From: an uncultured Acidobacteriota bacterium
Lineage (GTDB): Bacteria; Acidobacteriota; Vicinamibacteria; Vicinamibacterales; CAVVIG01
Direction of reading: 5' to 3'
Length of the DNA: 64,000 bases
NCBI GenBank assembly: GCA_963761615.1
Contig: CAVXGU010000004.1
Coordinates: forward strand, 223,537-287,536
Of this stretch, positions 5,816 through 41,910 are shown piece after piece (within the stretch, counting starts at the first letter, position 1; each line of letters starts with the position of its first letter). Position numbers and translations under genes: made by a program. Below the pieces are notes generated by a model. It saw nothing but the letters and a program-made list of their open reading frames with translations. It ran no database searches and was not told the DNA's origin.

Positions 5816-5925
5816 TCGAAAAGGATCCCGATTAGGAGCATAGCAGAGGCCAAAGACATTCGGAGACAATTCTGAGTTTGCGCGGCCGTCACGAAGCTGC
5901 CGCGTCGACTTGACATGGCCGCCGC

Positions 5926-8480
5926 ATGCTGGGCGCCATGACGCCTCCCCTTTCACGCCTCGCGCGCACCGCCCTTCTCCTGATCGCCCTCGCGTTCGGC
6001 ACCGCACTCGTGCTCGCCCAGCCGCCGCAGGCGCCCGACGTGCCGGGCGCCCGCGGCGGCGGCGTCACGCTGCTGCCCAACGGCTGGCGCATCGCGCCGG
6101 CCGGGCGCAGCCTTCAGGTCGGCGACTTCCCGCTGTCGATGGTCATGACCCCGGATCGCCGCTACCTGGTCATCAGCAACAACGGGTGGTCGAAGCCGAC
6201 GCTCACGATCGTCGACACCGAGCAGCTCGGCGTCCGCGCGCGCGTCCCGGTGGACAACGCGTGGCTCGGGCTCGCATGGAACCCGAAGGGCACCCAGCTC
6301 TACTCCTCCGGCGCGGCCGACAACACCGTCAACGTCTTCGACTACCGGACCGGCACGCTGCGGCCGGCGCGCCAGTTCGTCGTGGATCGCTCGGCCGTGC
6401 GCCTGCCGCCGCACATGCTCGACATGGGCGGCACCGGCTTCATCGGCGGCCTCGCCGTCAGTCCGGACGGGCACACCCTGTACGCCGCGCACGTCTTCGG
6501 CCGCGGCGTCAGCTCGATCGACGTCGAGACGGGCGACGTGCAGACCGTGAGCCTGCCGGCCGAGGCGTACACCGTCCTGCCCTCGCCGGACGGGCGGACC
6601 GTGTTCCTCTCGCTCTGGGGCGGCGCGAAGGTCCTCGCGCTCGATGCCCGGACGCTCTCGATCACCGGGGAGGGCGGCGTCGGCGAGCATCCGAACGCGA
6701 TGGCCCTGTCGAAGGACGGCACGCGGCTCTTCGTCGCCTGCGCCAACACGAACTCGGTCTGGGCGCTCGACGTGCCGTCGCTCGCCGCGCGCGAGCGGAT
6801 TTCCGTCTCGATGTTCCCGCACGCGCCGGCCGGGACCACGCCGAACGCGCTCGCCGTCTCGCCGGACGGCACCACCCTCGCCGTGGCGGACGCCGACAAC
6901 AACACGGTCGCCGTCGTCGACATCAAGACGCCCGGCGCGAGCGAGGTGGAAGGCTTCATCCCCACAGGGTGGTATCCGACGGCGGTGCTCTTCGACCAGA
7001 CCGGTCGGCGCCTCTTCGTCCTGGATGGCAAGGGCCTGACGAGCCAGTCGAATCCGCGCGGTCCGCAGCCCGTGAGCGGAGCGCCGACGGGCAGTACGTC
7101 GCGCAGCTGCTGCAGGGGGCGCTGTCGGTCATCGACTGGCCCGACGCTGCACGCTTGAAGGCCTACACGCAGCAGGCCGCGTCGCTCTCGGCCTACAAGG
7201 ACTCGATCCGTCTCGCGCCGGAGGACGCGCCCGCCGGCAACCCGATTCCCGCCCGGGTCGGAGATCCGTCGCCGATCAAGCACGTCTTCTACGTGATCCG
7301 CGAGAACCGCAGCTACGACCAGGTCCTGGGCGACCTCGGACGGGGCAACGGCGATCCGACCCTGACGCTTTTCGGCGGGGACGTGACGCCCAACGCCCAC
7401 GCCCTCGCGCGCGAGTTCGTCACGCTGGACAACTTCTACGTGGACGCCGAGGTGAGCTACGACGGCCACGCCTTCTCGACGGGCGCGTACGCGACGGACG
7501 CCGTCGAGAAGCTCTGGCCGACCAATTACGGCAACCGCGGCGGCGCCTACCTGAGCGAGGGCGGGTTCGGCACCCGCAACAAGTACGGCAACCTCGACGC
7601 CCCGGCCGACGGCTACCTCTGGGACTTCGCCGCACGCGCCGGCGTCACGTACCGCAGCTACGGCGAGTTCGCCATGCGCGCGAACGGGAAGACGGACGGC
7701 CCCATCGTCGCGGCCGTGCCGGGCCTCGAAGGGCACATCGACACCGCCTATCCGCCGTTCGATCTCACCATCCGCGACAACGCGCGGCTCGATCTCTGGC
7801 TCCAGGAGTTCCACCAGTTCGAGCAGAACGGCCGGCTGCCGCAGCTCAACATCGTCCGCCTCGGAGACGATCACACGATGGGCACCCGGGTCGGCGCGCG
7901 CACCCCGCGCGCCATGGTCGCGGAGAACGACCTCGCCGTCGGCCGCCTGGTCGAGGCCGTCTCGAAGAGCCCCTACTGGAAGGACTCGGCGATCTTCGTC
8001 CTCGAGGACGATGCACAGAACGGCCCGGACCACGTGGACTCGCACCGGTCGCCGGCGTTCCTGGCGGGTCCGTACGTGAAGCGGGGCGCCGTCGACAGCA
8101 CGCTCTACACGACCTCGGGCATGCTGCGGACGATGGAGTTGATCCTCGGTCTCCCGCCGATGAGCCAGTACGACGCGGCAGCGACGCCGATGTACAACGC
8201 CTTCCAGGCCGCGCCCGTCGAGACGCCGTTCACGGCCAGGCCGGCGCGCGTCTCCCTGGACGAGGTCAACGGACAGGACGCCTTCGGCGCGAGCGCCTCG
8301 GCGAAGATGGATTTCCGCGACGCGGACCGGATTCCCGAGGACGCGCTCAACGAGATTCTGTGGAAGTCGATCAAGGGCGCCGGCTCCGCGATGCCGCCGC
8401 CGGTCCGTTCCGGGTTCATCCGCGGCGTCGAGCGCCAGGGCGAGGAAGCCGCCGAGCGGCACGAGCGGACGCGGCCCTAG
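5926..8480 (+). pseudogene. bifunctional YncE-like beta-propeller / phosphoesterase (PLC/AcpA-type) protein, reading frame broken near 7075-7095
   Basis: The N-terminal 380 aa (frame of 5926) has a signal peptide and YVTN-type repeats (SPDG..L..A). The C-terminal 460 aa (frame of 5910) has the phosphoesterase pattern HVFYVIRENRSYDQVLGDL...DNFY..AEVSYDGH...LGDDHT...EDDAQNGPDHVD.HRS. The two halves join only with a -1 shift. Confidence 0.8.

Positions 8481-22312: not shown

Positions 22313-22316
<4 letters not shown>
21312..22316 (-). CDS. dihydroorotate dehydrogenase-like protein (PFOR-associated)
   Basis: 334 aa starting at MTLTTEYLGMTLSNPLVVGASPLS. TIM-barrel DHOD-like pattern (IASLNG, VKLSP, NRF). 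Its start overlaps the nifJ stop by 4 nt. Confidence 0.85.
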
Positions 22317-25948
<3,632 letters not shown>

Positions 25949-26113
25949 GCGCGTCGTGGGACTCGCGCGGACATCCTACACCCGGCCGACGGGGCGATCC
26001 ACGCGCGTCCGCCCGCGCGTGGTAGCATCGAGCGACTGTCGACCGCAGATCACGCTGGAAGGACAGCGAGGCGCCGGCACGACGTCCTGACGAGGTTGCG
26101 GCTGGAGCCTGTG

Positions 26114-26599: not shown

Positions 26600-29500
26600 A
26601 TGCCTGAGCCGCCGTCGCCGCTCGACGCCGCCTCCTCGCCGCTCTGCTCGCTCGGCCTGTATGCGGGACGCGTCGCGGGGGCCGTCGTCGGACGGACCCG
26701 CGAGCTCGCCGCGGTCGACGAGGAGCTCGCCGCCGCCGAGCGCGGCCTCTCCTGCCTGACGCTCGAGGGCGAGCCCGGCATCGGCAAGACGCGCCTTCTG
26801 CTCGCCGTCGAATCGATGGCCCGCACGCACGGCTTCGTGTCGATGGCGGTCACGGCCGACGAGGAGATCCGCGGGCCGTTCCTCCTCGCACGCAGCATCT
26901 TTGCCTGCCCCGGGATCGCCGAGGGGCTGTCGGCCGACGCCGCGCAGGCGCTCGAACGGATCGCACACGTCCTGGCGAACCCCGAGGACCCCGGCCTGGC
27001 GAGTCTCCCGCCCGATCGGAAGCTCCTGCGCATCTTCGACCTGGCGGGAGCGGCGTTCCGTCTGATCGCCGCCGAGCATCCGGTCCTGTTGATCATCGAC
27101 GATCTGCAGTGGGTCGACGGAGACAGTCTGCGACTGCTGCGCTACGTGGCGCGCGCGGACGGCGCCAGCCGGATTCTGCTGGTGGTCGCGATCAGGCCGT
27201 CGGAGGTGGCGTTCGTCAACGAGGCGGTGACGCTACTCGCCGACCTCGAGCGCATGGGCCTCGTCCGGCGGCTGAAGCTCAAGCGCTTCACGCAGGCGCA
27301 GTCGGTGGAATTCCTGCAGCAGGCCTTCGGCGGACCGCTCGAGCCGGCCAGCGTCGCCGTCATGCACGCCCAGGCGGAGGGCCTGCCGTTCGTGCTGTCC
27401 GAACAGGCGCACGTCTATCGCGAGAACGGCCTCATCCGGCAGGTCGACGGGATCTGGCGCCTGGCGCCCAACGCGGAGCGCCTGCTGCCGTCGGCCGTGC
27501 GAACGCTCATCGATCGGCGGGCCGTGCACCTCCCCGACGCCGCGAGAGCGATCCTCGCCGAGGCGGGCGTCCTCGGACGCACATTCAGCCTCCGCGACCT
27601 CGCGGACCTCCGGCTTCGCCTCGGCGAAGGAGGCGACGCCGACGCGCTCGCCGACGCGCTCCAGCCGGCCGTCGACGCCGGGTTGCTGGTCGAGCAGCCG
27701 CGCGAATCGCCCGCCGACTACAGCTTCACCCACGATCAGATCCGGGAGACCCTGGTCATCGGACTGCCGACGACTCGGCGGCGGGCGGTTCACGGTGCGA
27801 TCGTGGACATGCTGGTGGGCGACGGCGGCGAGCCGCCGAAAGGAAGCCTCTCGCTGCTCAGCCAGCACGCCCTCCTGGCGGGGCGAACCGCCTCGTGCCT
27901 GCGCTTCTCGATCGACGCGGCGCGCGCGGCGATCGAGGCCAAGGCCCCGGAGGAGGTGCTGAGCCTGGTTCGCCGGGCGCTGCCCGTGGCATCGGCTCCA
28001 CGGGACCGGGTGGCGCTGCTCTGCCTGCAGGACGACGCCCTGCAGATGCTCCGGCGCCAGGATCAACGGCTCGAGATCCTGTCGGAGCTCGGTGCGCTCG
28101 CCGACGCGCTCGCCGATGCCCACCTCGGGTTCGAGGTCCGGCTGCGCCGCGCGGGAGCGCTCCGCCTCTCGCACGACGAGGACGGCGCGGCCGAGATCTC
28201 GCGTCAGGTCCGGGAGTCGGCGTCGGCCCAGGGCGACGAGGCCGTGGAGCTGGCGGCGTGCATCGAGCTCGGTCAGGATCTGCTCCGGGTCGAGATGGGG
28301 GCGGGCTTCGCCCAGACGCCGACCGAGTCGGATCTGGACGGCGCCGAGGCGGCCTATCAGCGCGCCCTGGTGCTCGCCGAGCGCCGGCAGGACGATCCCA
28401 TGCTCGCCGCGACCAGTCGCGAGCTCGGCGTCATCGCGCTCTCGCGCCTTCGACAGTGGTTCGTGGGCGCGGTCGCGGCCGGGGAGCACATTTCGGTCAT
28501 GCGCCGGGTGGTGGCGGGTGAACCGCTGGACGACGTCCTGCGCACGCTGCCGGTCGGTCCGGAGCTGATGGCCAGAGCCAACGGCCACTTCGAGCGGGCG
28601 CTCGAGATCTTCGAGCGTCTGGGCGACCGCCAGGGCGCGATGGCCACCGTCATCGCCATGGCCCTGACGAGCTGGGCGCCGGAGGTTCACGTCACGGGCT
28701 CGGCCGCGCGCGTCGAGGACATCCGGCGCCTCGTGGAAAAGCTCAAGTCGTTCACCAAGGAGAGCGACCGCGCGCTCGCCGAGGCCCAGATGCTGTTCGG
28801 ATCCCACGTCTACGCGTTCGCCAAGGGGATTCCGGACGTCGCCCTGGCGAAGGGTGACGAAGCGTTCCGCGCGGCGCGCGCGGCCGGCGAGCGGGCAATC
28901 GAATTCGCGGCCGCCGGAGGCATGGCCCGCACGAACGCGCAGCTCGACCGGAAAGAAGAAGCCCGCCGATGGCTGGATCTGGCGGCGACGGTCGCCGCGG
29001 CCGCACCAACGCGGACGCGGGCCCGGCGCCTCGAGTTCTGGCGGGGCCTCGTCCTCGGGCGGGCCGGCGACGCCGACGGCGTGCAGCAGCATCTGACTCA
29101 CGCCGCGCGCATGGCCCTGGACGACGAGCGCCCCGCGGAACGATGCGAGGCGCTCGCCTGGCTGGCCTCGGAATCGGCGCGGCTCGGACGCGATCGGAAA
29201 GACGACGCCCTCCTCGCCGTCGCGGAGCAAGCCGCGCGGACGGTCCTGCAGGACGCGGCGGCGCTCCCCGGCCACGCCCCGTGGCGGCCGCAGGCCCACG
29301 CGGCCCTGGCCCGGGTGGCGCTGGTGAGGGGGGAGACCGACGCGGCGGCGGAAGCCGGCAGGCGCGCCCTCGCCGAGCTGGACACCGCGATGCGAGAGGA
29401 CATGAACCTGGACGTCCTGCTTCCGGCCGCCGAGGCGGTTCTCGTGGCGGGATCGGACGCGGAAGCCCGGGCGCTGCAGGAGCGTCTGCAGCTGCTGCTC

Positions 29501-29824
29501 AGGCTCCACGCCCAGCGAATCCTGAGCGACGACGTGCGGGGTGACTGGTTCAGGTTCGGGATCGGACGCGAGCTGGCCCTCCTCGCAGGGCCCGTCGTCG
29601 ACCCGGGCACCGACAGCCGGGAGCAGAAACAGACCGACCTTTCCGAGGAGGACGTCCAGCTCCTTCGGCTCGTCGTCGAAGGACGCACCAACAAGGAGAT
29701 CGCCAGGGAGATTGGCGCTCCGGAGCGGGTCGTGTCCCTGCGGCTGGCGGAGTTGTTCGTCAGAATCGGCGCGTCGTCCCGCGCGGGCGCGACGGTGACG
29801 GCGATCGCAGGAGGGATGGTCTAG
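26600..29824 (+). CDS. STAND/AAA ATPase - TPR-like - LuxR-type HTH transcriptional regulator
   Basis: 1074 aa. Walker A GEPGIGKT, Walker B LLIIDDLQWVD, a long helical repeat region, and a C-terminal LuxR HTH (LSEEDVQLLRLVVEGRTNKEIAREIG...V). Confidence 0.85.
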   Translation: MPEPPSPLDAASSPLCSLGLYAGRVAGAVVGRTRELAAVDEELAAAERGLSCLTLEGEPGIGKTRLLLAVESMARTHGFVSMAVTADEEIRGPFLLARSIFACPGIAEGLSADAAQALERIAHVLANPEDPGLASLPPDRKLLRIFDLAGAAFRLIAAEHPVLLIIDDLQWVDGDSLRLLRYVARADGASRILLVVAIRPSEVAFVNEAVTLLADLERMGLVRRLKLKRFTQAQSVEFLQQAFGGPLEPASVAVMHAQAEGLPFVLSEQAHVYRENGLIRQVDGIWRLAPNAERLLPSAVRTLIDRRAVHLPDAARAILAEAGVLGRTFSLRDLADLRLRLGEGGDADALADALQPAVDAGLLVEQPRESPADYSFTHDQIRETLVIGLPTTRRRAVHGAIVDMLVGDGGEPPKGSLSLLSQHALLAGRTASCLRFSIDAARAAIEAKAPEEVLSLVRRALPVASAPRDRVALLCLQDDALQMLRRQDQRLEILSELGALADALADAHLGFEVRLRRAGALRLSHDEDGAAEISRQVRESASAQGDEAVELAACIELGQDLLRVEMGAGFAQTPTESDLDGAEAAYQRALVLAERRQDDPMLAATSRELGVIALSRLRQWFVGAVAAGEHISVMRRVVAGEPLDDVLRTLPVGPELMARANGHFERALEIFERLGDRQGAMATVIAMALTSWAPEVHVTGSAARVEDIRRLVEKLKSFTKESDRALAEAQMLFGSHVYAFAKGIPDVALAKGDEAFRAARAAGERAIEFAAAGGMARTNAQLDRKEEARRWLDLAATVAAAAPTRTRARRLEFWRGLVLGRAGDADGVQQHLTHAARMALDDERPAERCEALAWLASESARLGRDRKDDALLAVAEQAARTVLQDAAALPGHAPWRPQAHAALARVALVRGETDAAAEAGRRALAELDTAMREDMNLDVLLPAAEAVLVAGSDAEARALQERLQLLLRLHAQRILSDDVRGDWFRFGIGRELALLAGPVVDPGTDSREQKQTDLSEEDVQLLRLVVEGRTNKEIAREIGAPERVVSLRLAELFVRIGASSRAGATVTAIAGGMV

Positions 29825-29826: not shown

Positions 29827-30561
29827 GTGCTTCAGGTTCGCATCGAACGCTCCCGCTGCATCGGGGCGGGCAACTGCATCACCATCGCGCCGACCGCGTT
29901 CGACTGGCTCGAGGGCGAGTTCTTCAAGGTGGCGCTCGTCGATGCCACGAGCGTCGACGAGGAGATCCTCAGGGAAGCCGCCCTGTCCTGTCCGACCCAG
30001 GCCATCGTGCTGGAGGACGTCGAAGAGCTGCTGCCCTGGCAGCTCCGCGCCAGGCAGACGGTCGGATCCGTCCGGGTCGCCGAGACGTTCATGTTCACGG
30101 ACATCGTGAAGTCGACCAACCTGGTCGAGGCGATCGGCGACGAGGCCTGGGACGCACTGCTGCGGTGGCACAACGAGACGCTGCGCGCCGTCTTCGTCGC
30201 GCACGACGGGACCGAGGTCGTCTCCACCGGCGATGGGTTCTTCGTCGAGTTCAAGACGGCCGATGCCGCGCTCGCCTGCGCCGTCGCCCTCCAGCGGGAG
30301 CTGGCGGAGCACCGGCGGGCCCAGGGCTTCTCGCCGCAGGTTCGCATCGGGATCCACACGGCCGATGCCACCAGAGTGGGGAGCAACTTCTCCGGGAAAG
30401 GCGTTCACGAAGCGGCGCGAATCGCGGCGCTGGCGGAGGGCGGCGAGATCCTCGCCAGCCGCCAGTCGATGACGCCGCGATTTACCGCCTCCGAGCCGCG
30501 CCAGGTCACCTTGAAAGGCATCGCCGACCCGGTGGAGGTCGTGACGGTCCAGTGGAAGTGA
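29827..30561 (+). CDS. ferredoxin domain fused to a class III nucleotidyl cyclase homology domain
   Basis: GTG start 2 nt after the LuxR stop. Residues 1-65 carry C11-x2-A-x2-C17...C-P (CIGAGNC...SCPTQAI), a single-cluster ferredoxin motif. Residues 85-244 carry the cyclase motifs FMFTDIVKST, TGDGFFVEF, RIGIHT and GVHEAARIA. Confidence 0.8.
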   Translation: MLQVRIERSRCIGAGNCITIAPTAFDWLEGEFFKVALVDATSVDEEILREAALSCPTQAIVLEDVEELLPWQLRARQTVGSVRVAETFMFTDIVKSTNLVEAIGDEAWDALLRWHNETLRAVFVAHDGTEVVSTGDGFFVEFKTADAALACAVALQRELAEHRRAQGFSPQVRIGIHTADATRVGSNFSGKGVHEAARIAALAEGGEILASRQSMTPRFTASEPRQVTLKGIADPVEVVTVQWK

Positions 30562-31795: not shown

Positions 31796-32224
31796 ATGTC
31801 GATTGCAGACGTGCTCGCCGACGTGCCGCTGTTCGCAGGGCTCGATGCCAAGGCGATCGAGTCCCTGGCGGGCTTCACCTTCCGGAAGACGTTCGAGCCC
31901 GGGGACCTGATCGTCGAGGAAGGCCGCACGGGGAACGGCATGTTCATCGTCCTCTCCGGGAGCGCCGAAGTCGTCAAGGGCCTCGGGACGCCGCAGCCGC
32001 GCGTCGTCGCGACGCTCGGCGCCGGCGAGCCGATCGGCGAGATGGCGCTCCTGGGCGAGTGGCCGCGCACCGCGTCGGTGCGGGCGCTCGAAACGACGGA
32101 ATGCGTCGGCATCGACCGGTGGATCTTCCTCGACTATCTGGAGAAGGAGCCGAAGCTCGCGCTTCGGCTGCTCCAGATCCTGGCGCTGCGGCTGGCGGAG
32201 ACGGCGGAGCGGCTGGCCGAGTAG
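31796..32224 (+). CDS. stand-alone cyclic nucleotide-binding domain protein
   Basis: 142 aa with the pattern PLFAGLD......L......F..G..I..EG....MFIVLSG and the phosphate-binding cassette GEPIGEMALLGEWPRTASVRA. No output domain. Confidence 0.85.
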   Translation: MSIADVLADVPLFAGLDAKAIESLAGFTFRKTFEPGDLIVEEGRTGNGMFIVLSGSAEVVKGLGTPQPRVVATLGAGEPIGEMALLGEWPRTASVRALETTECVGIDRWIFLDYLEKEPKLALRLLQILALRLAETAERLAE

Positions 32225-32228
32225 GCGC

Positions 32229-33488
32229 TTACGTCGCCGCGAGGCTCTTGGCGATCCCCGCAAGGGCGGTCCTGACGGACGCGAGCACCGCCGGCGCTCG
32301 ATCGCGAGCCTGGAGGAAGCCGCAGTACGCCCCGAGCTCTCCCAGCCGTTCGCGAAAGACCGTCCGGGCCGCGTCCCCGTGCGTCGGGATCGTCGCGCCC
32401 CGCGACAGCCGGAAGCTGATCCCGGCCGTCTTGCCCGGGTGCGACGGCCCGGCGGGCGACTTCGTCAAGGCGTCGGCCAGCGGCGCGACGATGTCCATCA
32501 TCAGCGACTCGGCGGCTCGGGACAGCCGCTGCAACTGCTCGTTCGACTCCTCGCCGTGCACGAAGAGCCGCCCCAGGACCTGCGTCATCAGCTCGTAGCA
32601 CGCGTCGGCGAGGTTGCTCAGCTCGGCCGTGTCCGGATCGTCGATGAAGTTGAGATCCTCGGTGTCGGTCTTGTCGCTCGGCGGCAGGGCGTAGGGGTTG
32701 GCCAGGACCGGTCGCGCCGGCTGGAATCCGGGATCCTCGGCCAGGGCGTCCTTGCACTCCCGCCAGATCGTGACGAACTTGCTGTAGTGCGAGTCGGGCG
32801 TGTCGCGGCTCGCGCCTTCCCCCTGGACGACGATCACGTTGATCGCCTGCTGCGCCGACGCGAGATCGGTGACCGGCGTCAGCTCGGGCAGGCTTTCGAA
32901 GTGGGCGGGCGCCGCCGTCTGCATGTCGGGACGGCCGATGAAGAGCCCGCGCTCGCCGTACTTCTGCGCCAGATAGACGAAGCCGTCCTCGATGCCCCGG
33001 TAGAGGCGGCCCTGGGTGTGGTATTCGCGCTCGGTCGCGAAGATGTCGCTGAGCTGCGGTCGAACGGCGGCGGGGAGACTGCGGGCGACCCTGCCGTCCG
33101 CGCCGACGAGATCGTCGGGCTCCTCGATGGCGATGAACTGCTCCATCGTGTCGAGACTGAACGGCGCCAGTCGTAGGTGAAACCCACCGCGCCGATCCAT
33201 CCGGATCGGGAAGTTCGGGCGCCGGAGGTGGGGTGCCCCGCCGATCGCCGTCAGGAGATTGCACACGGCGCCCAGATGGAGCATCTCCTGGACGGCGACG
33301 CCGCGCAGCAGGCGGCTCCAGCGCCGGATCTTGCGCAGCTGCGCGTCCGTGATCCCTTCGTCCGTGCTGCTCTTCAGGCTGAAGGCCGTGAACAGGTAGC
33401 AGCACATGACGCCGTGCTCGATTTCCGCCGCCTCCGTCAGGAGGTAGATCAGCTGCGCGCGGTTCTCGATGCGGAGGGTCGGCTCCAT
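32229..33488 (-). CDS. ferritin-like domain protein
   Basis: 419 aa starting at MEPTLRIENRAQLIYLLTEAAEIEHGVMCCYLF...QEMLHL, a ferritin-like four-helix motif pattern. ATG verified at 33486..33488. Confidence 0.7.
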   Translation of the reverse strand: MEPTLRIENRAQLIYLLTEAAEIEHGVMCCYLFTAFSLKSSTDEGITDAQLRKIRRWSRLLRGVAVQEMLHLGAVCNLLTAIGGAPHLRRPNFPIRMDRRGGFHLRLAPFSLDTMEQFIAIEEPDDLVGADGRVARSLPAAVRPQLSDIFATEREYHTQGRLYRGIEDGFVYLAQKYGERGLFIGRPDMQTAAPAHFESLPELTPVTDLASAQQAINVIVVQGEGASRDTPDSHYSKFVTIWRECKDALAEDPGFQPARPVLANPYALPPSDKTDTEDLNFIDDPDTAELSNLADACYELMTQVLGRLFVHGEESNEQLQRLSRAAESLMMDIVAPLADALTKSPAGPSHPGKTAGISFRLSRGATIPTHGDAARTVFRERLGELGAYCGFLQARDRAPAVLASVRTALAGIAKSLAAT

Positions 33489-33582
33489 CAGGGCACCTAG
33501 GATACACGCGCCGGTCGGCGGATGGATGCCCTCCCGAACGGCCGGCACGTCCCCCGACCGGGGGCGTGCCGGCGGTGCCGGC

Positions 33583-34062
33583 CTAGCCGATTGGCCGAGG
33601 CGCCGGGCTTTCGGCCGGCGCGCTCGTCGCCGCCTCCTGTGGGTAGAGCGGCGCGACGCCGTCCGAGTGATTGGGCAGGTACCACGCAGCGATCCGTGCG
33701 GGAGCGCCGGCGGATGTCCGCTCGAGCGTCATCTGCTCCTTGTCGCTCGACACGGGCCTCTGCACCGGCGTGGTGAAGAACGTCGCGTACACCGTGGAGC
33801 GATCCTGGCTCAGGACGCGCACGATCGAGGGCTCCACCATCTGGAACACGTAAGTCCCCGGCTTCAGTCCGACGCCCGGAATCTCGATCGGGCCACTGAA
33901 GAACATGAAGTGGTCCGACGGCGATCCGCGGACGACGCCGGCATGTCCTGTGACGGTGACAGTGAACTCCATCGGCTGCTGAGCTTGTGCCCATGCCGGA
34001 TGGGCTCCGCTCAGCAGGAACACCGCGGCGATTGCGACTCCTGCGCCGATCAGCTTCTTCAT
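33583..34062 (-). CDS. secreted hypothetical protein
   Basis: 159 aa with signal peptide MKKLIGAGVAIAAVFLLSGAHPAWAQ. ATG verified at 34060..34062. Confidence 0.6.
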   Translation of the reverse strand: MKKLIGAGVAIAAVFLLSGAHPAWAQAQQPMEFTVTVTGHAGVVRGSPSDHFMFFSGPIEIPGVGLKPGTYVFQMVEPSIVRVLSQDRSTVYATFFTTPVQRPVSSDKEQMTLERTSAGAPARIAAWYLPNHSDGVAPLYPQEAATSAPAESPAPRPIG

Positions 34063-34127
34063 CGGATACCTCCTTGCTACTGCAACGATCGTGATTCGTT
34101 GCAAAGGGGGTTCCGGAAGACACGGCG

Positions 34128-35552
34128 TTACAGACCGCGGCGCGTCTGGAACGGTCGCCCCATGCGGACGTCGCGCTGTCGCAGGATGCGATCGCTCGCC
34201 GCGACGCGCGAGTCGACGAGCGGACGTGGCGCGAGGCCGAAGCCGACGAGTGCCAGGACGAGCGCTGCGAAGGTCCACGCTTCTCGCCGCGTCAGACCGA
34301 ATCGCGGACCCGCGTCCGGCTCGCGGCGGCCGCAGAAGAGCGCGAAGTACATCCGGACGATGGTCAGCCCGGTCAGCGCCGACGCCGCCACGACGGCGAA
34401 TCCCATCACCGGAAAGGCGTCGACCGCGCCGTTCACGAGCAGTTCCTGACCGACGAAGCCGAGCGTGCCGGGAAAGCCGGTGCACGCGAGTCCGAGGCAG
34501 AGGAAGCTCACCGCCAGGAGCGGCATGCGCTCGTAGCCGCCGTGATAGGACGTCAGATCGAGCCGGCCCCGGCGCGCTTCGAGCACGAGGATGACGCGCG
34601 CGAGGCCGGCGAACCCGAGCCCCGCCGACAGCCAGACCAGCAGTCCACCCGCCAGGGCGCTCGTGCTCGTGCAGTCGAGGCCCGCCATCACCAGGGCCGA
34701 CTGGCTCATGAACAGGTACCCGCACGCGCGCCGGGCGCTCGACTGGACCAGGGCGAGCGCCGCGCCGTAGACGGCTGTTCCGAGCGCGAGCACCGCGATG
34801 ACGCGCAGCATCTCCCCGGACGCGCGCGGGACGATGAGCACGACGGTGATGTACGCACCCACCTGTGGCGCGTTGAAGAGGATGGCGGGCCCGAGCCGGC
34901 CGCGGTCGAAGACTTCCGGGACCCATGCGTGGAACGGCACGATCCCCTTGCGCACGAGCGCCGCCGCCACGATCAGCCACATGCCCGTCGTCGCGACCGC
35001 CACGTTCCCGGCGAACGGTCCGACGAACAGTGCGACGCCGGCGCCGAGCAGCAGGGTGGAGGCACCGAGATAGGCCGCGGCGATCCGGCGTTGATCGCGA
35101 TGCGCCGGGTCGCCGAGGGCGTCGAGCAGCGTCCACACGGACGCCGCCGACAGGAGGAAGAGCGCCACGGCGCTCTCGGTGAGAAAGGATGCGAGCGTGA
35201 GCAGCGTGGCGAGGGCCGCCCGGCGGAGGCCGCGGCGATCCAGCGATGCCCGCGGCGTCACCGCGACGGTGAGCAGCCAGAGGGCCGCGGCGAGGGGCAG
35301 CAGGGCCGCCGACAGCGTGTCGACACGCAGAATCGACTCTCCGCCCGGTACCCAGCTGAGGCGCGACGTGCGGAGGGACAGGTCGTGGAGCCCGGGCAAG
35401 ACGGCGACGACGACCGTGGCCGCGAGCATGAGGCCCGCGGCGCCGACCGCCAGGCGTCGAAGGCGCTCGACCTCTCGGTCGACGAACGAGAGACCGATGA
35501 CCAGGGCGGGCAGCGCCGCGGCGAGCGCGAGCCAGGGGCCGGGGTTACTCAT
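34128..35552 (-). CDS. proton-conducting membrane transporter subunit (NuoN/NuoM-like)
   Basis: 474 aa starting at MSNPGPWLAL. Multi-TM with the PFHAWVPEV motif typical of the complex I antiporter-like family. Its start overlaps the upstream gene stop by 8 nt. Confidence 0.8.
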   Translation of the reverse strand: MSNPGPWLALAAALPALVIGLSFVDREVERLRRLAVGAAGLMLAATVVVAVLPGLHDLSLRTSRLSWVPGGESILRVDTLSAALLPLAAALWLLTVAVTPRASLDRRGLRRAALATLLTLASFLTESAVALFLLSAASVWTLLDALGDPAHRDQRRIAAAYLGASTLLLGAGVALFVGPFAGNVAVATTGMWLIVAAALVRKGIVPFHAWVPEVFDRGRLGPAILFNAPQVGAYITVVLIVPRASGEMLRVIAVLALGTAVYGAALALVQSSARRACGYLFMSQSALVMAGLDCTSTSALAGGLLVWLSAGLGFAGLARVILVLEARRGRLDLTSYHGGYERMPLLAVSFLCLGLACTGFPGTLGFVGQELLVNGAVDAFPVMGFAVVAASALTGLTIVRMYFALFCGRREPDAGPRFGLTRREAWTFAALVLALVGFGLAPRPLVDSRVAASDRILRQRDVRMGRPFQTRRGL

Positions 35553-36900
35553 CGCGATCGTCGCCTCCGGGCGCGGACGCCGGCCACTCCATCGGCACGA
35601 GGGCCTGGCAGAGCCATCCATCGAGGCGGCTCAGCCCGCGCGCCGCCGTCGTGAACGGTCCGACGATGACGCGGTCGAGCCACGCGTCGAGGAAGCCACG
35701 CTCCAGCGCGGCGAGAAACAGACGGTGGCGCAGCCGCTCCGGGATCAGACGGATCACCGGGCCTTCCCGCTCCTGGCGGTGACCGATGGCATCTTCCATT
35801 CCGTGCAGGTCGTGCAGGACGTTCGGAGCGCTCAGGAACTGCAGCAGCCGGAACGAGGCGTGCCCGACCAGATGGACGAACGCCACCACGTACCATCCGA
35901 TCGCGATCTCCACGACGATCAAGGCGACCTGGGTGAGGGAGGCATAGGCGAGCGACGACTTGACATCGCTCTGCACGCGGGTGGCGAGGCCGGCGAAGAC
36001 GGCCGTCGCCAGTCCCAGGGCGCCGGCCAGCACGCGGGCGGCCGGCGCCTGCTCCAGCAGGGGCGCCGCGCGCAGCAGCAGGAAGCACCCGGCGTGCACG
36101 GAGAGAGAGCCGTAGTAGACGGCGCTCGACGGAGTCGGGCCCTCCATCGCGCGCGGCAGCCACCCCGAGAACGGCAGCAGCGCGCTCTTGCCGGCCACGG
36201 CCACGATGAGGAGCACCGCGATGACCGTGGCATGCGCGCCGGTCAGGGCCAGCGCCTGGCCGGGCTTCGCGCCGCCGAACAGCAGCGAGAGGCTGTCGCT
36301 GCCGGCGAGGTGCCGCAGGAGGACCGCCGCCGCCAGCATCGCGGCGTCGCTCACGCGGTACACCGACAGCACCCGCAGCGCGTTCGACACCGGCGCCGGC
36401 CGCTCGTGGAAGAACGCCACGAGCAGCGCGGAGCTCAGGCCGACGAGCTCCCATCCGACGAGCAGCACCTCGACGTTCCCCGCCAGGGCGACGAGGAGCA
36501 TCCCGGTCACGAACATCGCCAGCAGCACGAAGTACCGGTTGTAGCCGGCCTCCCGGTGCAGGTACCGGTTCGAGAACGCCGAGACGACCCCCGCGATCAC
36601 GGCACAGAGCGCGGCGAAGCCGAGGGACACGCGATCGATCGAGAGCTCGATCGCGATGCCGCCGGCGTGACCCGTCGACCAGGCGCCGTACGACACGACC
36701 TGCGAGCCGCGGCCGGACACCCCGTGCACCACGAGCGCCGCGAGCAGGGACGCGCACGCGAGCGTCATGCTGGCGCCGGCCAACCTGCCGGTCCACCGCT
36801 CGGGGAGCGGCCGGTTGACGAGCGAGGCGCCGCCGAGCAGGAGGAACAGCGCTGCCGGCGACCCGACCCCGACGGTCACCAGCGTTGCGATCGGACTCAT
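35545..36900 (-). CDS. dabB: NuoL/MnhA-like proton-conducting subunit, DabB-type
   Basis: 451 aa starting at MSPIATLV. Motifs include GWELVGLSS and GKSALLPFSGWLPRAMEGPTPSSA. ATGA overlap with the upstream DUF2309 gene. Confidence 0.8.
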   Translation of the reverse strand: MSPIATLVTVGVGSPAALFLLLGGASLVNRPLPERWTGRLAGASMTLACASLLAALVVHGVSGRGSQVVSYGAWSTGHAGGIAIELSIDRVSLGFAALCAVIAGVVSAFSNRYLHREAGYNRYFVLLAMFVTGMLLVALAGNVEVLLVGWELVGLSSALLVAFFHERPAPVSNALRVLSVYRVSDAAMLAAAVLLRHLAGSDSLSLLFGGAKPGQALALTGAHATVIAVLLIVAVAGKSALLPFSGWLPRAMEGPTPSSAVYYGSLSVHAGCFLLLRAAPLLEQAPAARVLAGALGLATAVFAGLATRVQSDVKSSLAYASLTQVALIVVEIAIGWYVVAFVHLVGHASFRLLQFLSAPNVLHDLHGMEDAIGHRQEREGPVIRLIPERLRHRLFLAALERGFLDAWLDRVIVGPFTTAARGLSRLDGWLCQALVPMEWPASAPGGDDRDE

Positions 36901-39900
36901 CGCGCCCGTGCCGGCGAATCGGGCGGTGCGCCCGTGCGAGTCGGGTTCGACGCCGGCGCTGGAACGATGGCCACCGGAGCGAGGAATCCGCGCTTGCCCT
37001 GGTACCACGCGGCCGAATCGCCGACGACCGACGTGAGGGGACGTTCCGGCCTTCGGAGGACGAACCCCGAGGGGCCAAGTTCCCACAGCGCGCCCGAGTG
37101 GGGATCGAGACACGCCAGCCAGATCCAGCGGTTGCGCACCAGCCGATCGAGCGTCGCGTTCTCGCCGACGACGCGACCGACGCGATCGGGCGTGCCTTCC
37201 ACGACGATGGCGAGACGCGTGGGCTCGTGGATCTCGACCATCTGCCAGGGGAGCCCCGTGCGCAAGTCGCTCTGCGCGCCGTCCATCACGCCGAGGAGCG
37301 ACGTGACGTTGTGCGGCAGCTTCGTGCCGCAGCCGTAGCCGGATGGATCGACGTAGCTGAAGTAGTACTCCAGGTTGATCCCGGCCACGACCGGCACGAC
37401 CGCGGCCATCACGCGGGCCAGGACCGCGCCGTCGCCGTCCCGCGTCGGGTCGTACGACGACAGGAACGCGCGACGATCCAGGAACAGCCCGCGCGTTCGG
37501 GCACGCCGGCCGATGATGCAGAACGCGTTGGTGGCGTGGCCGTACTCCGGGCGCGGCTGCGCCAGGTCCGCGGCACGCCCCTGGACGTGAGCGAGCGCCG
37601 CGGCGGGCGGGTACCAGCGCGGCACCGCGTCGAAGCGGCGGCACCGCTCGTGGGCCTCGCGCCGCCTCGCGGTGTCGACGGCACGTGTCGCGCGCGCGAA
37701 GGCCTCGCGCCAGCGCGCGGGCACCAGGTCGTCGTCGTAATACGTCACCGTGTTGTCGCAGGTGTTGCGCTGGGCGCCGACGAACCAAGTGCCGTCGCCG
37801 ATCGCCACGCCCTCCGCCGCCAGCGCCTGGCGCACGCGTGGATCGTTGGCCATCTGGGCGAACGCGCGGGCGTTCGGCCCGCCGCGCCCGCCGCCGCAGG
37901 CGCCGCAGTCGTGGGCTGATTCGTGCGGGTTGTTCAGGCTCACCGATCCGTGTCCGAACACCAGCACGAGCGGGGAGAGGCGGCCGGCGATCCCGATGTC
38001 CTCCAGAACGCGACGCACGATGCCGGCCATTTCCCGGACGGTGAAGCCGGAGTAGCTGCCGATCGGCGGCCGGCGCGTGTCGCGGCTCAACTGCAGGCGG
38101 GTTCGCGGGGCAGGAAGCGGCGGCGTCCGCACGACGCTCCACCGGGAGGAGAGCCACGGGAACACGACGCGCAGGACCAGCGGGACGAGCGAGAGCCAGC
38201 CGAACAGCGTCATCAACAGCGCGCCGCGAACGGGCAGACGGCTCCCGGCGTGCACGTTGTAGCCGAGGAACCCGGCGGCCCGCCGGTGCAGACGCCTCGA
38301 GCGCCCCGGCAGCGCCTCCGGGGCTTCCTCGACTTCGGCGACGTAGTGCTCCGGGCGGATCGTCACCGGGCACAGCGGCCGCGGATGCGCGTCCGACGCG
38401 CCCTGGTGGTACATCGCGACGTTGAAGAAGCCCGGCGCGCCGAAGGTCTCGCACTGCGGCTCGACTTCCTCCAGATGGCGCCGGAAGGACTCCTCCCGCT
38501 CGTCGATGCAGAACACCGCCTGGAAGGCCGGCGTGGCGTCGACGGGCCGTGGCGCGTGATGCGCGAGGGCGTCGTACACCCGATGCCGAATCGTTCGCTC
38601 GAAGGCCTGATGCAGGGTCCGCCGGCAGAGGGCGTCGACCTCACCGAGCTCGGACTCGATCTCGGCCACCTGGCCCGCCGTCCACTGCGTCACGATCGAG
38701 GCGTCGACGCCGCAGAGCTGGGCGAGGTGAAAGAGCGGCCACGCCCGGTCGGAGGGCGTCGGCGACGCCGGACCGGGAAGTTCGTCACGGAGCCATGGAC
38801 GGAGCCCGGCCAGCGGGCCGTGAAAGGACACCTGCCGCGCCGCGTCGGCGAGCGCGGCGCGCTCGAACAGCAGGCGGACGGCGAGATATCCGCGGAGCGT
38901 GACCGTGAGATCGAGCGTCGGCACGCGGTCGGGCCGCTCTTCGATCTGGCGGACGATGCCCGCCCAGCCCCGCAGCGCCAGGAGCTCGCTGCCGAGATAG
39001 GCGTCGGCCTCGTCTTCCGCGACGCCGAGGTCGGCCAGGGAGTTCGCGAGCGAGTCGAGCGCGCCGCGTCCCGCGGCGTGGTCGTCGGCGACGAGGCGCG
39101 GCAGCGTCGCGGCCCATCGACCGCAGTGCGCGGCGAGCCCGGTGCGGTAAAGCTCCAGGAAGCAGCCGTGGATGCCGAGATGCCGGTCGGGCATCGTCCA
39201 CGGTGCCAGCCCCTGGTCGAGGTAACCCGCGAGGAAGCGGATGAGCGGCGGGTGGATCCAGGCGTCGGTGTCGAGGCGGCGCGTCGCCAGGAGCCAGTCG
39301 CGATGCCGGACCGGGGCGGCGCCGGGCGCGGCGGGCGGTGGGGTGCGGGCACGACCGGCCGCGTCGAGGCACGCACGCCAGAGGCGGCGCACGGCGTGCC
39401 GCTCGTCTCCGGGGAGTTCGGATGGATCGATCGCGTCGGTCAGGGCCGCCCTGGCGGAGGCCGGGAGATCCGGACGGAACCGCGACAGCGCGGCGGTCTC
39501 GTCGAGGATCCACTGGAGCTCCCGTCCGGTTGCGGCCGGGATGCCGTGCAGCACGACGGCACGCCAGAGATCGAAGCGGGTCCCGACGCCGGCGACGTCC
39601 TCCCGTCCCCCCGGGCCGAGCGCCTCCTCGAGGAGGGCGTCCACGTCCTCGACCAGAATGCGGCCCGAGGCGAGCTTGTCGCGGTATCGCCCCTCGGCGA
39701 GGAACGGCTCGCGCCCGAGGGTGATGGCGGCGTCGGCCACGGCCTCCTCGAAGGGCAGGTGCTCGAAGGCGTGCAGCGTGTTGTGATGGATGAAGATGCT
39801 GATCGGCCCCTGCGCCGGCAGCCGGTGGGCCAGACGGTCGATGACCCGGGCGATCGGGTGGTCGGACGGGCCCGCATCCTGCGGGCCGGCGTGGTCGGGC

Positions 39901-39902
39901 AT
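36897..39902 (-). CDS. dabA: DUF2309 (YbcC) family protein, DabA-type
   Basis: About 1001 aa. N-terminus GPISIFIHHNTLHAFEHLPFEEAV. Putative Zn-site motifs FCIDEREESFRRHLE and GHGS...NPHESAHDCGACGG, as in beta-CA-like DabA. The start is chosen at MPDHAGP (39902); an alternative at 39947 would lie inside the operator palindrome. Confidence 0.85.
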   Translation of the reverse strand: MPDHAGPQDAGPSDHPIARVIDRLAHRLPAQGPISIFIHHNTLHAFEHLPFEEAVADAAITLGREPFLAEGRYRDKLASGRILVEDVDALLEEALGPGGREDVAGVGTRFDLWRAVVLHGIPAATGRELQWILDETAALSRFRPDLPASARAALTDAIDPSELPGDERHAVRRLWRACLDAAGRARTPPPAAPGAAPVRHRDWLLATRRLDTDAWIHPPLIRFLAGYLDQGLAPWTMPDRHLGIHGCFLELYRTGLAAHCGRWAATLPRLVADDHAAGRGALDSLANSLADLGVAEDEADAYLGSELLALRGWAGIVRQIEERPDRVPTLDLTVTLRGYLAVRLLFERAALADAARQVSFHGPLAGLRPWLRDELPGPASPTPSDRAWPLFHLAQLCGVDASIVTQWTAGQVAEIESELGEVDALCRRTLHQAFERTIRHRVYDALAHHAPRPVDATPAFQAVFCIDEREESFRRHLEEVEPQCETFGAPGFFNVAMYHQGASDAHPRPLCPVTIRPEHYVAEVEEAPEALPGRSRRLHRRAAGFLGYNVHAGSRLPVRGALLMTLFGWLSLVPLVLRVVFPWLSSRWSVVRTPPLPAPRTRLQLSRDTRRPPIGSYSGFTVREMAGIVRRVLEDIGIAGRLSPLVLVFGHGSVSLNNPHESAHDCGACGGGRGGPNARAFAQMANDPRVRQALAAEGVAIGDGTWFVGAQRNTCDNTVTYYDDDLVPARWREAFARATRAVDTARRREAHERCRRFDAVPRWYPPAAALAHVQGRAADLAQPRPEYGHATNAFCIIGRRARTRGLFLDRRAFLSSYDPTRDGDGAVLARVMAAVVPVVAGINLEYYFSYVDPSGYGCGTKLPHNVTSLLGVMDGAQSDLRTGLPWQMVEIHEPTRLAIVVEGTPDRVGRVVGENATLDRLVRNRWIWLACLDPHSGALWELGPSGFVLRRPERPLTSVVGDSAAWYQGKRGFLAPVAIVPAPASNPTRTGAPPDSPARAR

Positions 39903-39917
39903 CGGCGAACGTGCAAG

Positions 39918-39935
39918 TATAGCAATATTGCTATA
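39918..39935. promoter_or_regulatory. perfect 18-bp palindrome TATAGCAATATTGCTATA in the dabA/arsR-like divergent intergenic region (candidate operator)
   Basis: The palindrome was checked by hand. It lies in a 51-bp AT-rich gap within an otherwise roughly 70% GC sequence, and TATACT/TATATT -10-like hexamers overlap it on both strands. Confidence 0.6.
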
Positions 39936-39953
39936 TTGCGCTATCATGCGGTC

Positions 39954-40349
39954 GTGTCGCGGGCGGCAGGGGCGGGCGGAGGGGCGGCCGGAGAGCTCCA
40001 GGTGTTCAAGGCGGGGTTCTTCCGCGCCCTCGCCCATCCCACCCGCATCCGAATCCTCGAGATCCTCGCGTCGGGCGGACGCACGGTGCAGGAGCTGCAG
40101 GACGCCTTGACGCTCGACCAGCCGCTCGTCTCCCAGCAGCTCGCCGTGCTGCGCAACCGCGGCATCGTCGCCGCGCAGAAAGAGGGGCCGTCGGTCCGAT
40201 ACGCCCTGCGGGACCCGCTGGTCGCCGACCTGCTGGACGTCGCGCGTCGCATCTTCAACAACCACCTGGTCAGCACGCGAGGGCTGTTGACCGAGCTGCG
40301 GCGCGAGGGCCGTCGGCGGCCGTCGCGGACACGACTCGCCCGCCGGTGA
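39954..40349 (+). CDS. ArsR/SmtB-family transcriptional regulator
   Basis: 131 aa from GTG 39954. Motif FKAGFFRALAHPTRIRILEILASGGRTVQELQDALTLDQPLVSQQLAVLRNRGIV. The protein contains no Cys. Confidence 0.85.
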   Translation: MSRAAGAGGGAAGELQVFKAGFFRALAHPTRIRILEILASGGRTVQELQDALTLDQPLVSQQLAVLRNRGIVAAQKEGPSVRYALRDPLVADLLDVARRIFNNHLVSTRGLLTELRREGRRRPSRTRLARR

Positions 40350-40554
40350 CGTGACCGGCACTTGACGCCCTGGGGACCGCGAGCGTATTCTGGCGGCCCT
40401 TCACGCCGGACCATCGGATATGGCGTCCACGTGGCGCTCGGGCGCCACAGCGGCGACTCGGCTTGCGGCCGCGGCCCCCTGGGGGCGCTCGAAGTCCAGG
40501 CGCGTCACCGTCCCACTCCTCGCACGACCCCAACCTGCACACAAGGAGCGCATC

Positions 40555-41910
40555 ATGCCGCGGAGGCTTTTGGTGCTCGCCGGGTCCGCGCTGTCGATCA
40601 CCCTGCTGGCTGGCAGCGGCTGCTCGAAGTCAGGGTCCTCCGGCGGCACGACGTCGCCGACGGCGCCGAGCTCGCCGACCACGTCGCTGACCGTCAACGG
40701 CGTCCACACGCTCACCGGCATCGGGCAGACGTATCAGCTCCAGACGAGCGACGCCTCCGGCAAGGACGTGACGTTCCTCGTGATGTATCAGTCTTCGAAT
40801 CCTGGCGTCGCGACCGTCGGCGCGGCCGGCACGACGGCGGGACTCGTGACGGCGGTCGCCAACGGCGTCACCCAGATCACGGCGAGCGAGGGCACGGTCT
40901 CGACCACGTTCTCGCTGACCGTCAGCGCGACCGCGGCGCCCTGGGTCGACGAAGGTCCTCGCTTCAGCAGCGCGGACTTCGGTGCGCCCGGAGACCAGTC
41001 GTTTGCCGATGGCGCCGCCATCCCCCTGCCGGGCGGCGGCCTCAGAATCATCTTCTCGCACGGGCTGCAGGCGTACCTGAGCGAGTCGTCTCCCGACGGC
41101 TTGGGCTTCACCCCGGACTCCGGAACGCGCCCGTTCGCGAATTCTCCCGACGGCCAGGCGAACGCACACCTGTCGCTGGTTCACGTGCTGCGACTCGACG
41201 ATGGCAGCGTAAGGCTGTTCGGATCGGCGCAGGGCGCGAACGCCGGCGAATACAGTGCCGTGAGTCAAGACGACGCGTTGACCTGGACCTATGACGACGG
41301 CGTGCGGCTTGCCGGCTCGGGATTCAGCGGCTTCAGCGTCGTTCGACAGGGAGGCCTCTATCGGGCGTACTTCGGAATGGGAGGCGGGACGGCCGGTCAG
41401 ATTTCCGGAGGGCCCGACGCGATCGTCAGCGCCACGTCATCCGACACCCTCAGCTGGACGATGGATGGCGGCGTCAGGATCGCGGCCGGTGCGAGCCCGG
41501 CCGGCGCGCCGGGCTCCCCGTACCATCCGTCGGCGATTCTCAACCCGGATGGGTCCGTCCTCCTGATGTACGTGCGCTTCCCGGACGGCGGGGCCGATCA
41601 CTCGACCTCGTACGGACTCTGGACGAGCACGTCGACCGACGGCCTCACGTTCTCCAACGAGACGTGGACGAACCTGCTCGGCTGCGCCGATCCCGAGCTC
41701 GTGCGAAGCGGCGGTACGCTCCGGGCGTACTACGACGGCTGCCCGAGCGGCACGTTCGGCAGCGCGCACCAGGGCGGCTCCGTTCCCTCCGCGGTCTTCA
41801 CGAGAACCAGCAGCGCACCCCCAGCCGTCCCACCCGCGCCGAGTCAGCCGACCGTGCCGCAGAGACCCGCGTCGGTGGTTCCGGCGTGGAAGGCGGTTCG
41901 GCAGCGGTAG
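40555..41910 (+). CDS. probable lipoprotein with a Big_2 Ig-like domain and a BNR/Asp-box beta-propeller region
   Basis: AAGGAG lies upstream of the ATG at 40555. Signal LLVLAGSALSITLLAGSGC. Big_2-like SSNPGVATVGAAGTTAGLVTAVANGVTQITA. Asp-box-like SQDDALTW, SSDTLSW and STDGLTF. Confidence 0.7.
   Translation: MPRRLLVLAGSALSITLLAGSGCSKSGSSGGTTSPTAPSSPTTSLTVNGVHTLTGIGQTYQLQTSDASGKDVTFLVMYQSSNPGVATVGAAGTTAGLVTAVANGVTQITASEGTVSTTFSLTVSATAAPWVDEGPRFSSADFGAPGDQSFADGAAIPLPGGGLRIIFSHGLQAYLSESSPDGLGFTPDSGTRPFANSPDGQANAHLSLVHVLRLDDGSVRLFGSAQGANAGEYSAVSQDDALTWTYDDGVRLAGSGFSGFSVVRQGGLYRAYFGMGGGTAGQISGGPDAIVSATSSDTLSWTMDGGVRIAAGASPAGAPGSPYHPSAILNPDGSVLLMYVRFPDGGADHSTSYGLWTSTSTDGLTFSNETWTNLLGCADPELVRSGGTLRAYYDGCPSGTFGSAHQGGSVPSAVFTRTSSAPPAVPPAPSQPTVPQRPASVVPAWKAVRQR

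Follow-up and report, generated by a model that had tools for sequence, protein, structure and literature searches.

A 64,000-nucleotide (nt) stretch of DNA from an uncultured Acidobacteriota bacterium (assembly GCA_963761615.1, contig CAVXGU010000004.1, positions 223,537 to 287,536; hereafter the window, meaning this stretch at its full length) carries a three-gene operon of the DAB superfamily, comprising dabA, dabB and a third gene designated P3 in this analysis. The locus fits neither of the described subtypes, DAB1 and DAB2, and its third gene truly belongs to the unit, to which it is coupled translationally. The encoded proteins probably assemble into a heterotrimer of the DAB type, an energy-coupled ('vectorial') carbonic anhydrase where P3 would take the position of NuoM or DabC and contribute to the proton path.

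All three genes lie on the minus strand of the window, which has a G+C content of about 70%. The dabA gene (36897-39902) encodes a protein of 1001 amino acids (aa) that matches the PF10070 profile over its full length (positions 1-747 of 747; 755.9 bits, E 6.8e-227; Pfam). It is followed by dabB (35545-36900; 451 aa; PF00662 and PF00361), encoding a truncated NuoL-like putative proton-channel subunit, and by P3 (34128-35552; 474 aa; PF00361), encoding a NuoM-like third subunit that contains the motif PFHAWVPEV. The TGA stop of dabA overlaps the ATG of dabB as ATGA, and dabB and P3 share an 8-nt overlap (ATGAGTAA). These coordinates and both junctions had been given by an earlier model-generated annotation made from the letters and open reading frames (the sequence-only reading), and they hold; the same reading had described the third gene as a 474-aa antiporter-like protein with PFHAWVPEV, which its PF00361 match bears out. 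The boundaries of dabB and P3 are identical to the deposited NCBI/ENA gene calls. The dabA start at 39902 is that chosen by the sequence-only reading; the deposited call must use another, given that DabA from 39902 is absent from the protein collection, whereas the DabB and P3 sequences are present.

The three-gene arrangement is conserved. A species-representative collection (one genome per GTDB species) was scanned by pattern, with a 14-sequence P3 alignment as the query, and at least 557 stretches were found to encode a P3 relative. The locus counts given here refer to the best 80 of these at least 557 stretches, 76 of which have upstream sequence. In all 76, drawn from several phyla, dabA, dabB and P3 are adjacent, on one strand and in the same order. 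Overlaps of 4 nt (38 loci) or 1 nt (10 loci) join dabA to dabB, and overlaps of 8 nt (39 loci) or 4 nt (13 loci) join dabB to P3. This constancy of order across phyla identifies the third gene as a genuine part of the unit, and its co-inheritance with dabAB is obligatory; the sequence-only reading had named a generic Mrp/Nuo fragment, not conserved beside dabAB elsewhere, as a case that would defeat its claim, and the loci show otherwise. The hosts include Acidobacteriota (Vicinamibacterales, Thermoanaerobaculia and Terriglobales), Myxococcota (Polyangiales, Nannocystis, Enhygromyxa, Labilithrix and Sandaracinaceae), Binataceae, Planctomycetota, Elusimicrobiota and Spirochaetales, and all host genomes are metagenome-assembled genomes (MAGs). 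Acidobacteriota/Vicinamibacterales-like relatives share about 75-83% amino-acid identity, and one Acidobacteria MAG carries the same module between wholly different flanks. The module appears to be the DAB form of many uncultured Acidobacteriota and Myxococcota from soils and sediments.

DabA retains an intact beta-carbonic-anhydrase-like Zn site, in keeping with the assignment of the locus to the DAB type by the sequence-only reading. The protein aligns to the solved DabA2 of H. neapolitanus (PDB 9rd0_A; E 1.4e-66; HMMER), with C465, D467, R469, H651 and C666 falling on C351, D353, R355, H524 and C539, respectively. Among 58 DabA orthologues, C465, D467 and R469 are each conserved in 58/58, and H651 and C666 each in 57/58. 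Earlier, the site had been located in the motifs FCIDER and HDCGACGG, both of which are present. The assignment of FCIDER and the integrity of the site withstand rigorous alignment to 9rd0_A, but the ligand His is H651 in the sequence GHGS, 15 residues ahead of the Cys, and not the His of HDCGAC. The motif GFF, which forms the lid of the buried site, is also conserved. The window protein carries NNPHESAHDCGACGG, including conserved E661 and D665 within NNPHESAHDC, and in this motif it is closer to DabA1 than to DabA2. In a rough neighbour-joining tree of the catalytic region, built without support values, the window clade stands apart from DabA2 and from all DAB1 forms. A hydrophobic membrane hairpin ('finger/elbow') is present at approximately residues 559-584 and aligns to DabA2 433-464. 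The column of DabA2 E444 is occupied by L566 in the window protein and by A, L, V or T, never an acidic residue, across the family; the sole conserved charge in the hairpin is R578 (55/58).

DabB is a shortened NuoL-like protein. It covers only positions 1-230 of the 294 in the PF00361 profile, and it matches NuoL solely at residues ~37-361, corresponding to transmembrane helices (TM) 1-11. Its hydrophobic segments end by about residue 350, with none beyond, so that the protein consists of TM1-11 and a non-membrane tail of ~80 aa, without TM12-16. Alignment to DabB1 gives the same picture: residues 38-369 align to positions 44-368 of 579 (hhalign), and the region of ~200 residues that contains TM12-15 in DabB1 and DabB2 is therefore missing. 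Within the retained part, E151, R182, D185, K238, Y263, H269, H343 and R351 are invariant. Along the NuoL proton chain of K229, H254, H334, H338 and K342, the window DabB keeps K238, H343 and H347, and the column of NuoL K342 holds R351. A Glu of the NuoL-E144 type faces the neighbouring subunit in complex I. This column is Glu in all window-type DabB proteins (E151), H/Y/F/Q in DabB1, and Ile in DabB2 (Lo et al.).

Two conserved motifs, LHDLH and ALERGxxDxxLDR, mark the tail of DabB. Counted from R351, H363 is at +12 and H366 at +15, a spacing equal to that of H328 and R331 from K316 in Thermocrinis albus, where H328 and R331 bond the DabA motif adjoining the catalytic Cys (bioRxiv 10.64898/2026.05.01.722082). 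The DabA-DabB coupling interface is conserved, and the cytoplasm-side Lys/His chain of DabB appears largely so. The best NuoL model in NCBIfam scores DabB at 211 bits against a cut-off of 556, and the best MrpA model gives ~150 bits against cut-offs above 900.

P3, in contrast to the truncated DabB, has a complete antiporter-like fold. Its AlphaFold2 model (mean predicted local distance difference test score, pLDDT, 92; predicted TM-score, pTM, 0.92) shows 14 TMs with broken TM7 and TM12, and the top Foldseek match is NuoM (TM-score 0.86), followed by MrpD and NdhD. P3 covers PF00361 positions 79-294 (81 bits) and scores 114.4 bits against the NCBIfam NuoM model (TIGR01972; cut-off 263.8) and 76 bits against the best MrpD model (cut-off 542); its placement rests on these hidden Markov model scores together with those from HH and Foldseek comparisons. 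No nuo or mrp operon genes were found beside P3 in the neighbourhood. The wider family comprises 289 clusters at 50% identity (E <1e-30), collinear over the full length and far from true NuoM, and its longer members (591-678 aa) contain no extra Pfam domain. Among the NuoM residue columns, E144 is absent, K265 is replaced by Ser or Asn, and E407 by Gln with a Glu at +1. That Glu position, one residue past the TM12 Glu/Lys column, is near-invariant in P3 (E370), as are R201 and K202 at the position of the TM7 Lys.

Two simpler derivations of P3 were considered and rejected. The first, that its N-terminus (residues 1-199) represents the displaced TM12-15 of DabB, fails since this segment, although without a PDB match when searched alone, is collinear with NuoM TM1-6 in full-length alignments, the AlphaFold2 model and Foldseek. 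The second, a simple split of a nuoL gene, is inconsistent with DabB spanning TM1-11 and P3 spanning TM1-14, which are overlapping rather than complementary. Separately, one P3 relative of 714 aa (P0193) has two PF00361 stretches: residues 7-147 resemble a fragment of DabB, and residues 263-667 correspond to P3. Either the two proteins are naturally fused in it, or an indel has merged the overlapping genes; a true fusion would pose a topology problem, the DabB tail being predicted to be cytoplasmic.

The sequence-only reading had held that described DAB systems are two-component. This is contradicted by DAB1, reported in H. neapolitanus as a three-gene cluster in 2018 and now resolved by cryo-electron microscopy in T. 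albus as a DabA-DabB-DabC heterotrimer in which DabC is essential (bioRxiv 10.64898/2026.05.01.722082). DabC is small, belongs to no Pfam family and was judged to be structural; it superposes on the NuoL-proximal helices of NuoM, amounting to half of that protein, and is hydrophobic at the residues of the NuoM proton pathway (bioRxiv 10.64898/2026.05.01.722082). For comparison, 80 DAB1 loci were retrieved from metagenomes with a back-translated DabA1 motif. The usual locus consists of dabB (~559 aa), dabC (~250-270 aa, very hydrophobic), dabA (~1040 aa) and a PII gene; in most of the loci a PII-family gene comes last (for example 5632-5970 in locus L110 and 5471-5797 in L161). While short DabCs have no Pfam match, a 'long DabC' of ~438 aa in four loci (L108, L114, L129 and L140) passes the PF00361 threshold with 39 bits, and two loci (L105 and L117) encode a fused DabB-DabC of 760 aa; both sub-variants are unreported. 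Short DabC corresponds to the C-terminal half of long DabC (98.7%; hhalign), and long DabC links DabC to full-size NuoM-like proteins. The P3 family in turn matches long DabC at 88.8% (E 2.5e-6; collinear) and short DabC at 73% (E 3e-5; collinear with P3 ~227-443). These matches suggest that P3 is the same kind of subunit as DabC, namely a NuoM-type partner of DabB.

The window system resembles DAB1 (H. neapolitanus Hneap_0907-0909 and T. albus) in having three subunits: a ~1000-aa DabA with a Cys/Asp/Arg/His/Cys Zn site and the DabA1-like motif NNPxESAxDCGACGG, a NuoL-like DabB, and another membrane protein, which is related to NuoM in its C-terminal half. Gene order in DAB1 is B-C-A followed by PII, whereas the window has A-B-P3 and no PII gene. 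DabB of DAB1 has ~559 aa, compared with 451 aa and no TM12-15 in the window, and the two proteins carry H/Y/F/Q and Glu, respectively, at the NuoL-E144 column; the window DabB also has Tyr at the H254 column. DabC has ~250 aa and no Pfam match, while P3 has 474 aa and matches PF00361 at 81 bits. DabC of either length has hydrophobic residues (F/L/M) in the TM7 and TM12 columns, whereas P3 is charged there (R201, K202 and E370). In the catalytic subunit, the strictly conserved DabA1 motif NNPYESALDCGACGG is replaced by NNPHESAHDCGACGG, and RPEWGL by RPEYGH.

DAB2 of H. neapolitanus (PDB 9rd0) is a DabA2-DabB2 heterodimer, the periplasmic half-channel of which is formed by TM12-13 of DabB2 and Glu444 of the DabA2 'finger' (PMC13144422). 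The window system shares with it a catalytic core that aligns residue for residue, a membrane-inserted DabA hairpin and a NuoL-like DabB TM1-11. It differs in its third gene, DAB2 having no third subunit, and in the length of DabA (1001 aa compared with 827 aa in DabA2). DabB2 has 15 TMs and an Ile at the E144 column, whereas the window DabB lacks TM12-15 and has Glu, and the Glu444 column of the window DabA is hydrophobic. With neither DabB TM12-13 nor an equivalent of DabA Glu444, no obvious periplasm-side half-channel is left. Across the DAB types a three-way correlation is also apparent: a TM5 Glu in DabB occurs with a charged TM12 in the partner, H/Y/F/Q with a hydrophobic DabC, and Ile with no partner. 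This correlation, taken with the missing TM12-15 of DabB and the missing Glu of the hairpin, suggests that P3 most likely supplies part of the proton path and is more than a scaffold.

In the mechanism that we propose, DabA would hydrate cytoplasmic CO2 to bicarbonate at its buried Zn site, and DabB, through its NuoL-like TM1-11, would conduct protons, the probable coupling ion, down the proton-motive force. The cytosolic helices that follow TM11 of DabB would pass the resulting conformational change to DabA. P3 would sit as NuoM does beside NuoL and DabC does in DAB1, against the TM4-8 face of DabB, and would serve as a periplasm-side half-channel or an electrostatic relay into DabB. A purely structural or allosteric role for P3, comparable to that of DabC, in which it would steady the truncated DabB while all protons pass through DabB and the DabA hairpin, seems rather doubtful. 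Three points would suit a scaffold: the DabC of T. albus DAB1 was judged to be structural even though it is essential, P3 has none of the TM5 Glu, TM8 Lys and TM11 His, and Arg578 of the DabA hairpin (55/58) could replace NuoL K399. P3 nevertheless has, unlike DabC, near-invariant charges at TM7 and TM12; DabB has retained the interface Glu151 that is lost from DabB1 and DabB2; and a scaffold would leave the complex without an obvious periplasm-side half-channel, given that DabB TM12-13 and the Glu444 equivalent are gone.

Several features weigh against a proton-conducting P3 within a vectorial carbonic anhydrase. P3 lacks the canonical TM5 Glu, TM8 Lys (Ser or Asn at 227) and TM11 His, and it is hence not a complete canonical proton module. 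In DabB, the column of NuoL H254 and DabB2 H260, a residue essential in both DAB1 and DAB2, is invariably Tyr, and a likewise invariant His follows six residues on, such that the geometry of the channel may differ. The homology between P3 and DabC indicated by hhalign is moderate and P3 is closer to NuoM than to DabC by sequence, making independent recruitment conceivable. P3 is placed next to the TM4-8 side of DabB by analogy, and the case as a whole is drawn from sequence, fold and synteny across the clade. Finally, His789 of DabA, discussed below, could mean a different and perhaps less strictly vectorial catalytic cycle.

Both membrane subunits share the fold of NuoL-NuoM and MrpA-MrpD. 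They differ from these pairs in that the locus has no other nuo or mrp genes nearby and that scores fall far under the NCBIfam cut-offs for NuoL and NuoM; in addition, TM12-16 and the long lateral helix of NuoL are missing from the L-like subunit, and the M-like one is without the TM5 Glu and TM8 Lys of NuoM. Where two such subunits of complex I adjoin, the TM12 Glu/Lys of the first lies against the TM5 Glu and TM7 Lys of the second. The charged junction between DabB and P3 presumably resembles this arrangement, the acidic TM12 residue of the M-like protein being opposite the TM5 Glu, TM7 Lys and Arg/Asp of its L-like neighbour. A more specific version of the proposal, which we regard as possible but tentative, is a composite pathway split over the truncated DabB and P3. 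E370 in TM12 of P3 would provide the periplasm-side half, and K238, H269, H343, H347 and R351 of DabB the cytoplasm-side half leading to the DabA active site, where His789 would act as a retained CsoSCA-like proton shuttle. If so, the complex would amount to a carbonic anhydrase powered by a minimal 'complex I membrane arm' of two modules. The window type could then also represent the ancestral DAB architecture, with DAB1 (degenerate DabC) and DAB2 (no DabC; DabB TM12-13 and DabA Glu444 instead) derived from it.

A survey with COGNAT had already remarked that a COG1008/NuoM gene is frequently found nearby when a DUF2309 gene lies upstream of a nuoL homologue, and speculated that more membrane subunits would translocate more ions (PMC5700660). 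The 'clade C' of that study, ybcC(COG3002)-nuoL-nuoM, has the same gene order and extra NuoM gene and is very probably the same operon type as the window module (Klimchuk et al. 2017, PMC5700660). It was described, however, in a one-sentence neighbourhood remark that predates the discovery of DAB function and says nothing of where the type occurs, of residue patterns, of the shortening of DabB or of any relation to DabC. The sequence-only reading had arrived at a similar idea, that a second proton-conducting subunit would change the coupling stoichiometry or represent a new variant. Spelled out, DabB and P3 would be two independent proton channels that move at least two protons per CO2 and so allow bicarbonate to accumulate against a steeper gradient. 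The presence of two PF00361 subunits, the complete 14-TM fold of P3 with broken TM7 and TM12, and the appearance of the idea in 2017 (PMC5700660) speak for this. We nonetheless consider it improbable: neither canonical module is complete, DabB being devoid of TM12-16 and P3 of the TM5 Glu, TM8 Lys and TM11 His, and the two proteins jointly hold approximately one full set of pathway residues. Since the DabC trimer and the NuoM neighbours of the COGNAT survey have both been published, the bare three-gene observation has precedent. No earlier analysis of the window operon type was found in the searched literature, and as far as that literature shows, the truncated DabB, its charged full-length partner, the His789 signature and the wide distribution in soil phyla are new.

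A functional parallel exists in the cyanobacterial NDH-1MS/MS' complexes (NdhD3/NdhF3/CupA), where a NuoM-like and NuoL-like pair is coupled to Zn-dependent vectorial CO2 hydration. The Cup proteins are unrelated to DabA, however, and those complexes are attached to a complete redox-driven NDH-1, whereas the window locus has no redox module.

The window DabA carries His789 in the motif RPEYGH. This His is invariant in all 58 orthologues; DabA1 and DabA2 instead have Leu, the conserved last residue of RPEWGL (L825 in T. albus), which stands in place of a bicarbonate-binding or proton-shuttle residue in a motif found in 76 of the 80 DAB1 loci and in DabA2 as well. This column corresponds to H397 of CsoSCA, a proposed proton shuttle, and the lack of an H397-type residue in DabA1 is an acknowledged puzzle in the literature. 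On another reading, for which His789 speaks, the system would not serve CO2 uptake at all. It might instead be Na+-coupled, as has been claimed for MpsAB, run in reverse as an ion exporter powered by an exergonic reaction at DabA, as was proposed in 2017, or have become, through His789, an ordinary reversible membrane-tethered carbonic anhydrase. The dispute in the literature over the coupling ion of the family and the absence of carboxysome or RuBisCO genes nearby would accord with such alternatives. They are nonetheless very improbable, in that the DabA-DabB interface motifs and the GFF lid motif are conserved, the Lys/His chain of DabB appears largely so, DAB2 showed no Na+ dependence, and characterised DABs function in heterotrophs without carboxysomes (bioRxiv 10.64898/2026.05.01.722082).

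The operon is probably controlled by an adjacent repressor. A gene for an ArsR/SmtB-family (HTH_5) regulator (PF01022, E 7e-12) is divergently oriented upstream of dabA, at 39951-40349 on the plus strand (start codon approximate). An ArsR-family gene lies directly upstream of dabA in 27 of the 80 loci, divergently in 25 of these, and no other recurrent neighbour was found among the 80. A conserved-neighbour search around the module likewise returned no RuBisCO, carboxysome, SulP or PII genes. Between dabA and arsR lies a candidate operator, a perfect AT-rich palindrome of 16 bp (ATAGCAATATTGCTAT, 39919-39934, strandless) read from the sequence of this 70% GC genome. The exact palindrome is not conserved elsewhere, and similar AT-rich palindromes occur upstream of dabA in many Acidobacteriota loci. 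An alternative in-frame ATG for dabA at 39947 would turn the palindrome into coding sequence, which seems unlikely.

Downstream of P3, after a gap of 65 nt, lies a gene for a 159-aa signal-peptide protein without a Pfam family (33583-34062, minus strand), followed after 94 nt by one for a 419-aa ferritin-like protein (PF12902; 32229-33488, minus strand). The sequence-only reading had noted both genes and both gaps correctly, but neither belongs to the system, given that they accompany the module in 0/80 related loci. The secreted-protein gene has its own strong AAGGAGG ribosome-binding site, and the ferritin-like protein also matches the C-terminal part of VioB (TIGR04492; 84 bits, far under the cut-off). 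Within the 65-nt gap, a 7-bp inverted repeat (TGCAACG-N9-CGTTGCA, 34081-34103, minus strand) without a T-run may be a terminator, a processing site or a chance occurrence. A terminator scan of 32000-41000 found none and is uninformative at 70% GC.

Further from the operon, at a distance of ~10 kb, the window encodes a 1220-aa single-chain pyruvate:ferredoxin oxidoreductase (POR_N, POR, EKR, Fer4 and TPP domains; 22313-25975, minus strand). A flanking signalling cluster, with genes at 29827-30561, 31796-32224 and 26600-29824 (all on the plus strand), encodes a nucleotide cyclase domain joined to a ferredoxin-like 4Fe-4S domain, a stand-alone cyclic nucleotide (cNMP)-binding protein, and an AAA_16/LuxR regulator of the STAND type with 1074 aa.

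The coupling of proton flow to one-way hydration of CO2 in DAB complexes is a matter of debate. Two structures from 2026 disagree on whether the DabA hairpin has a part in transferring protons, and the exit of the catalytic proton from the active site is explained by neither. The window clade represents a natural experiment on both points, having dispensed with DabB TM12-15 and the hairpin Glu, gained a charged NuoM-like partner, and restored a His at the proposed shuttle position. It also offers a link between the membrane modules of complex I and Mrp and the reduced DabC. The reading of CO2 and bicarbonate metabolism from metagenomes is affected as well, as the third gene is now annotated as 'NADH-quinone oxidoreductase subunit M'; in its mostly heterotrophic soil hosts, the physiological role of the complex would be to provide bicarbonate from CO2.

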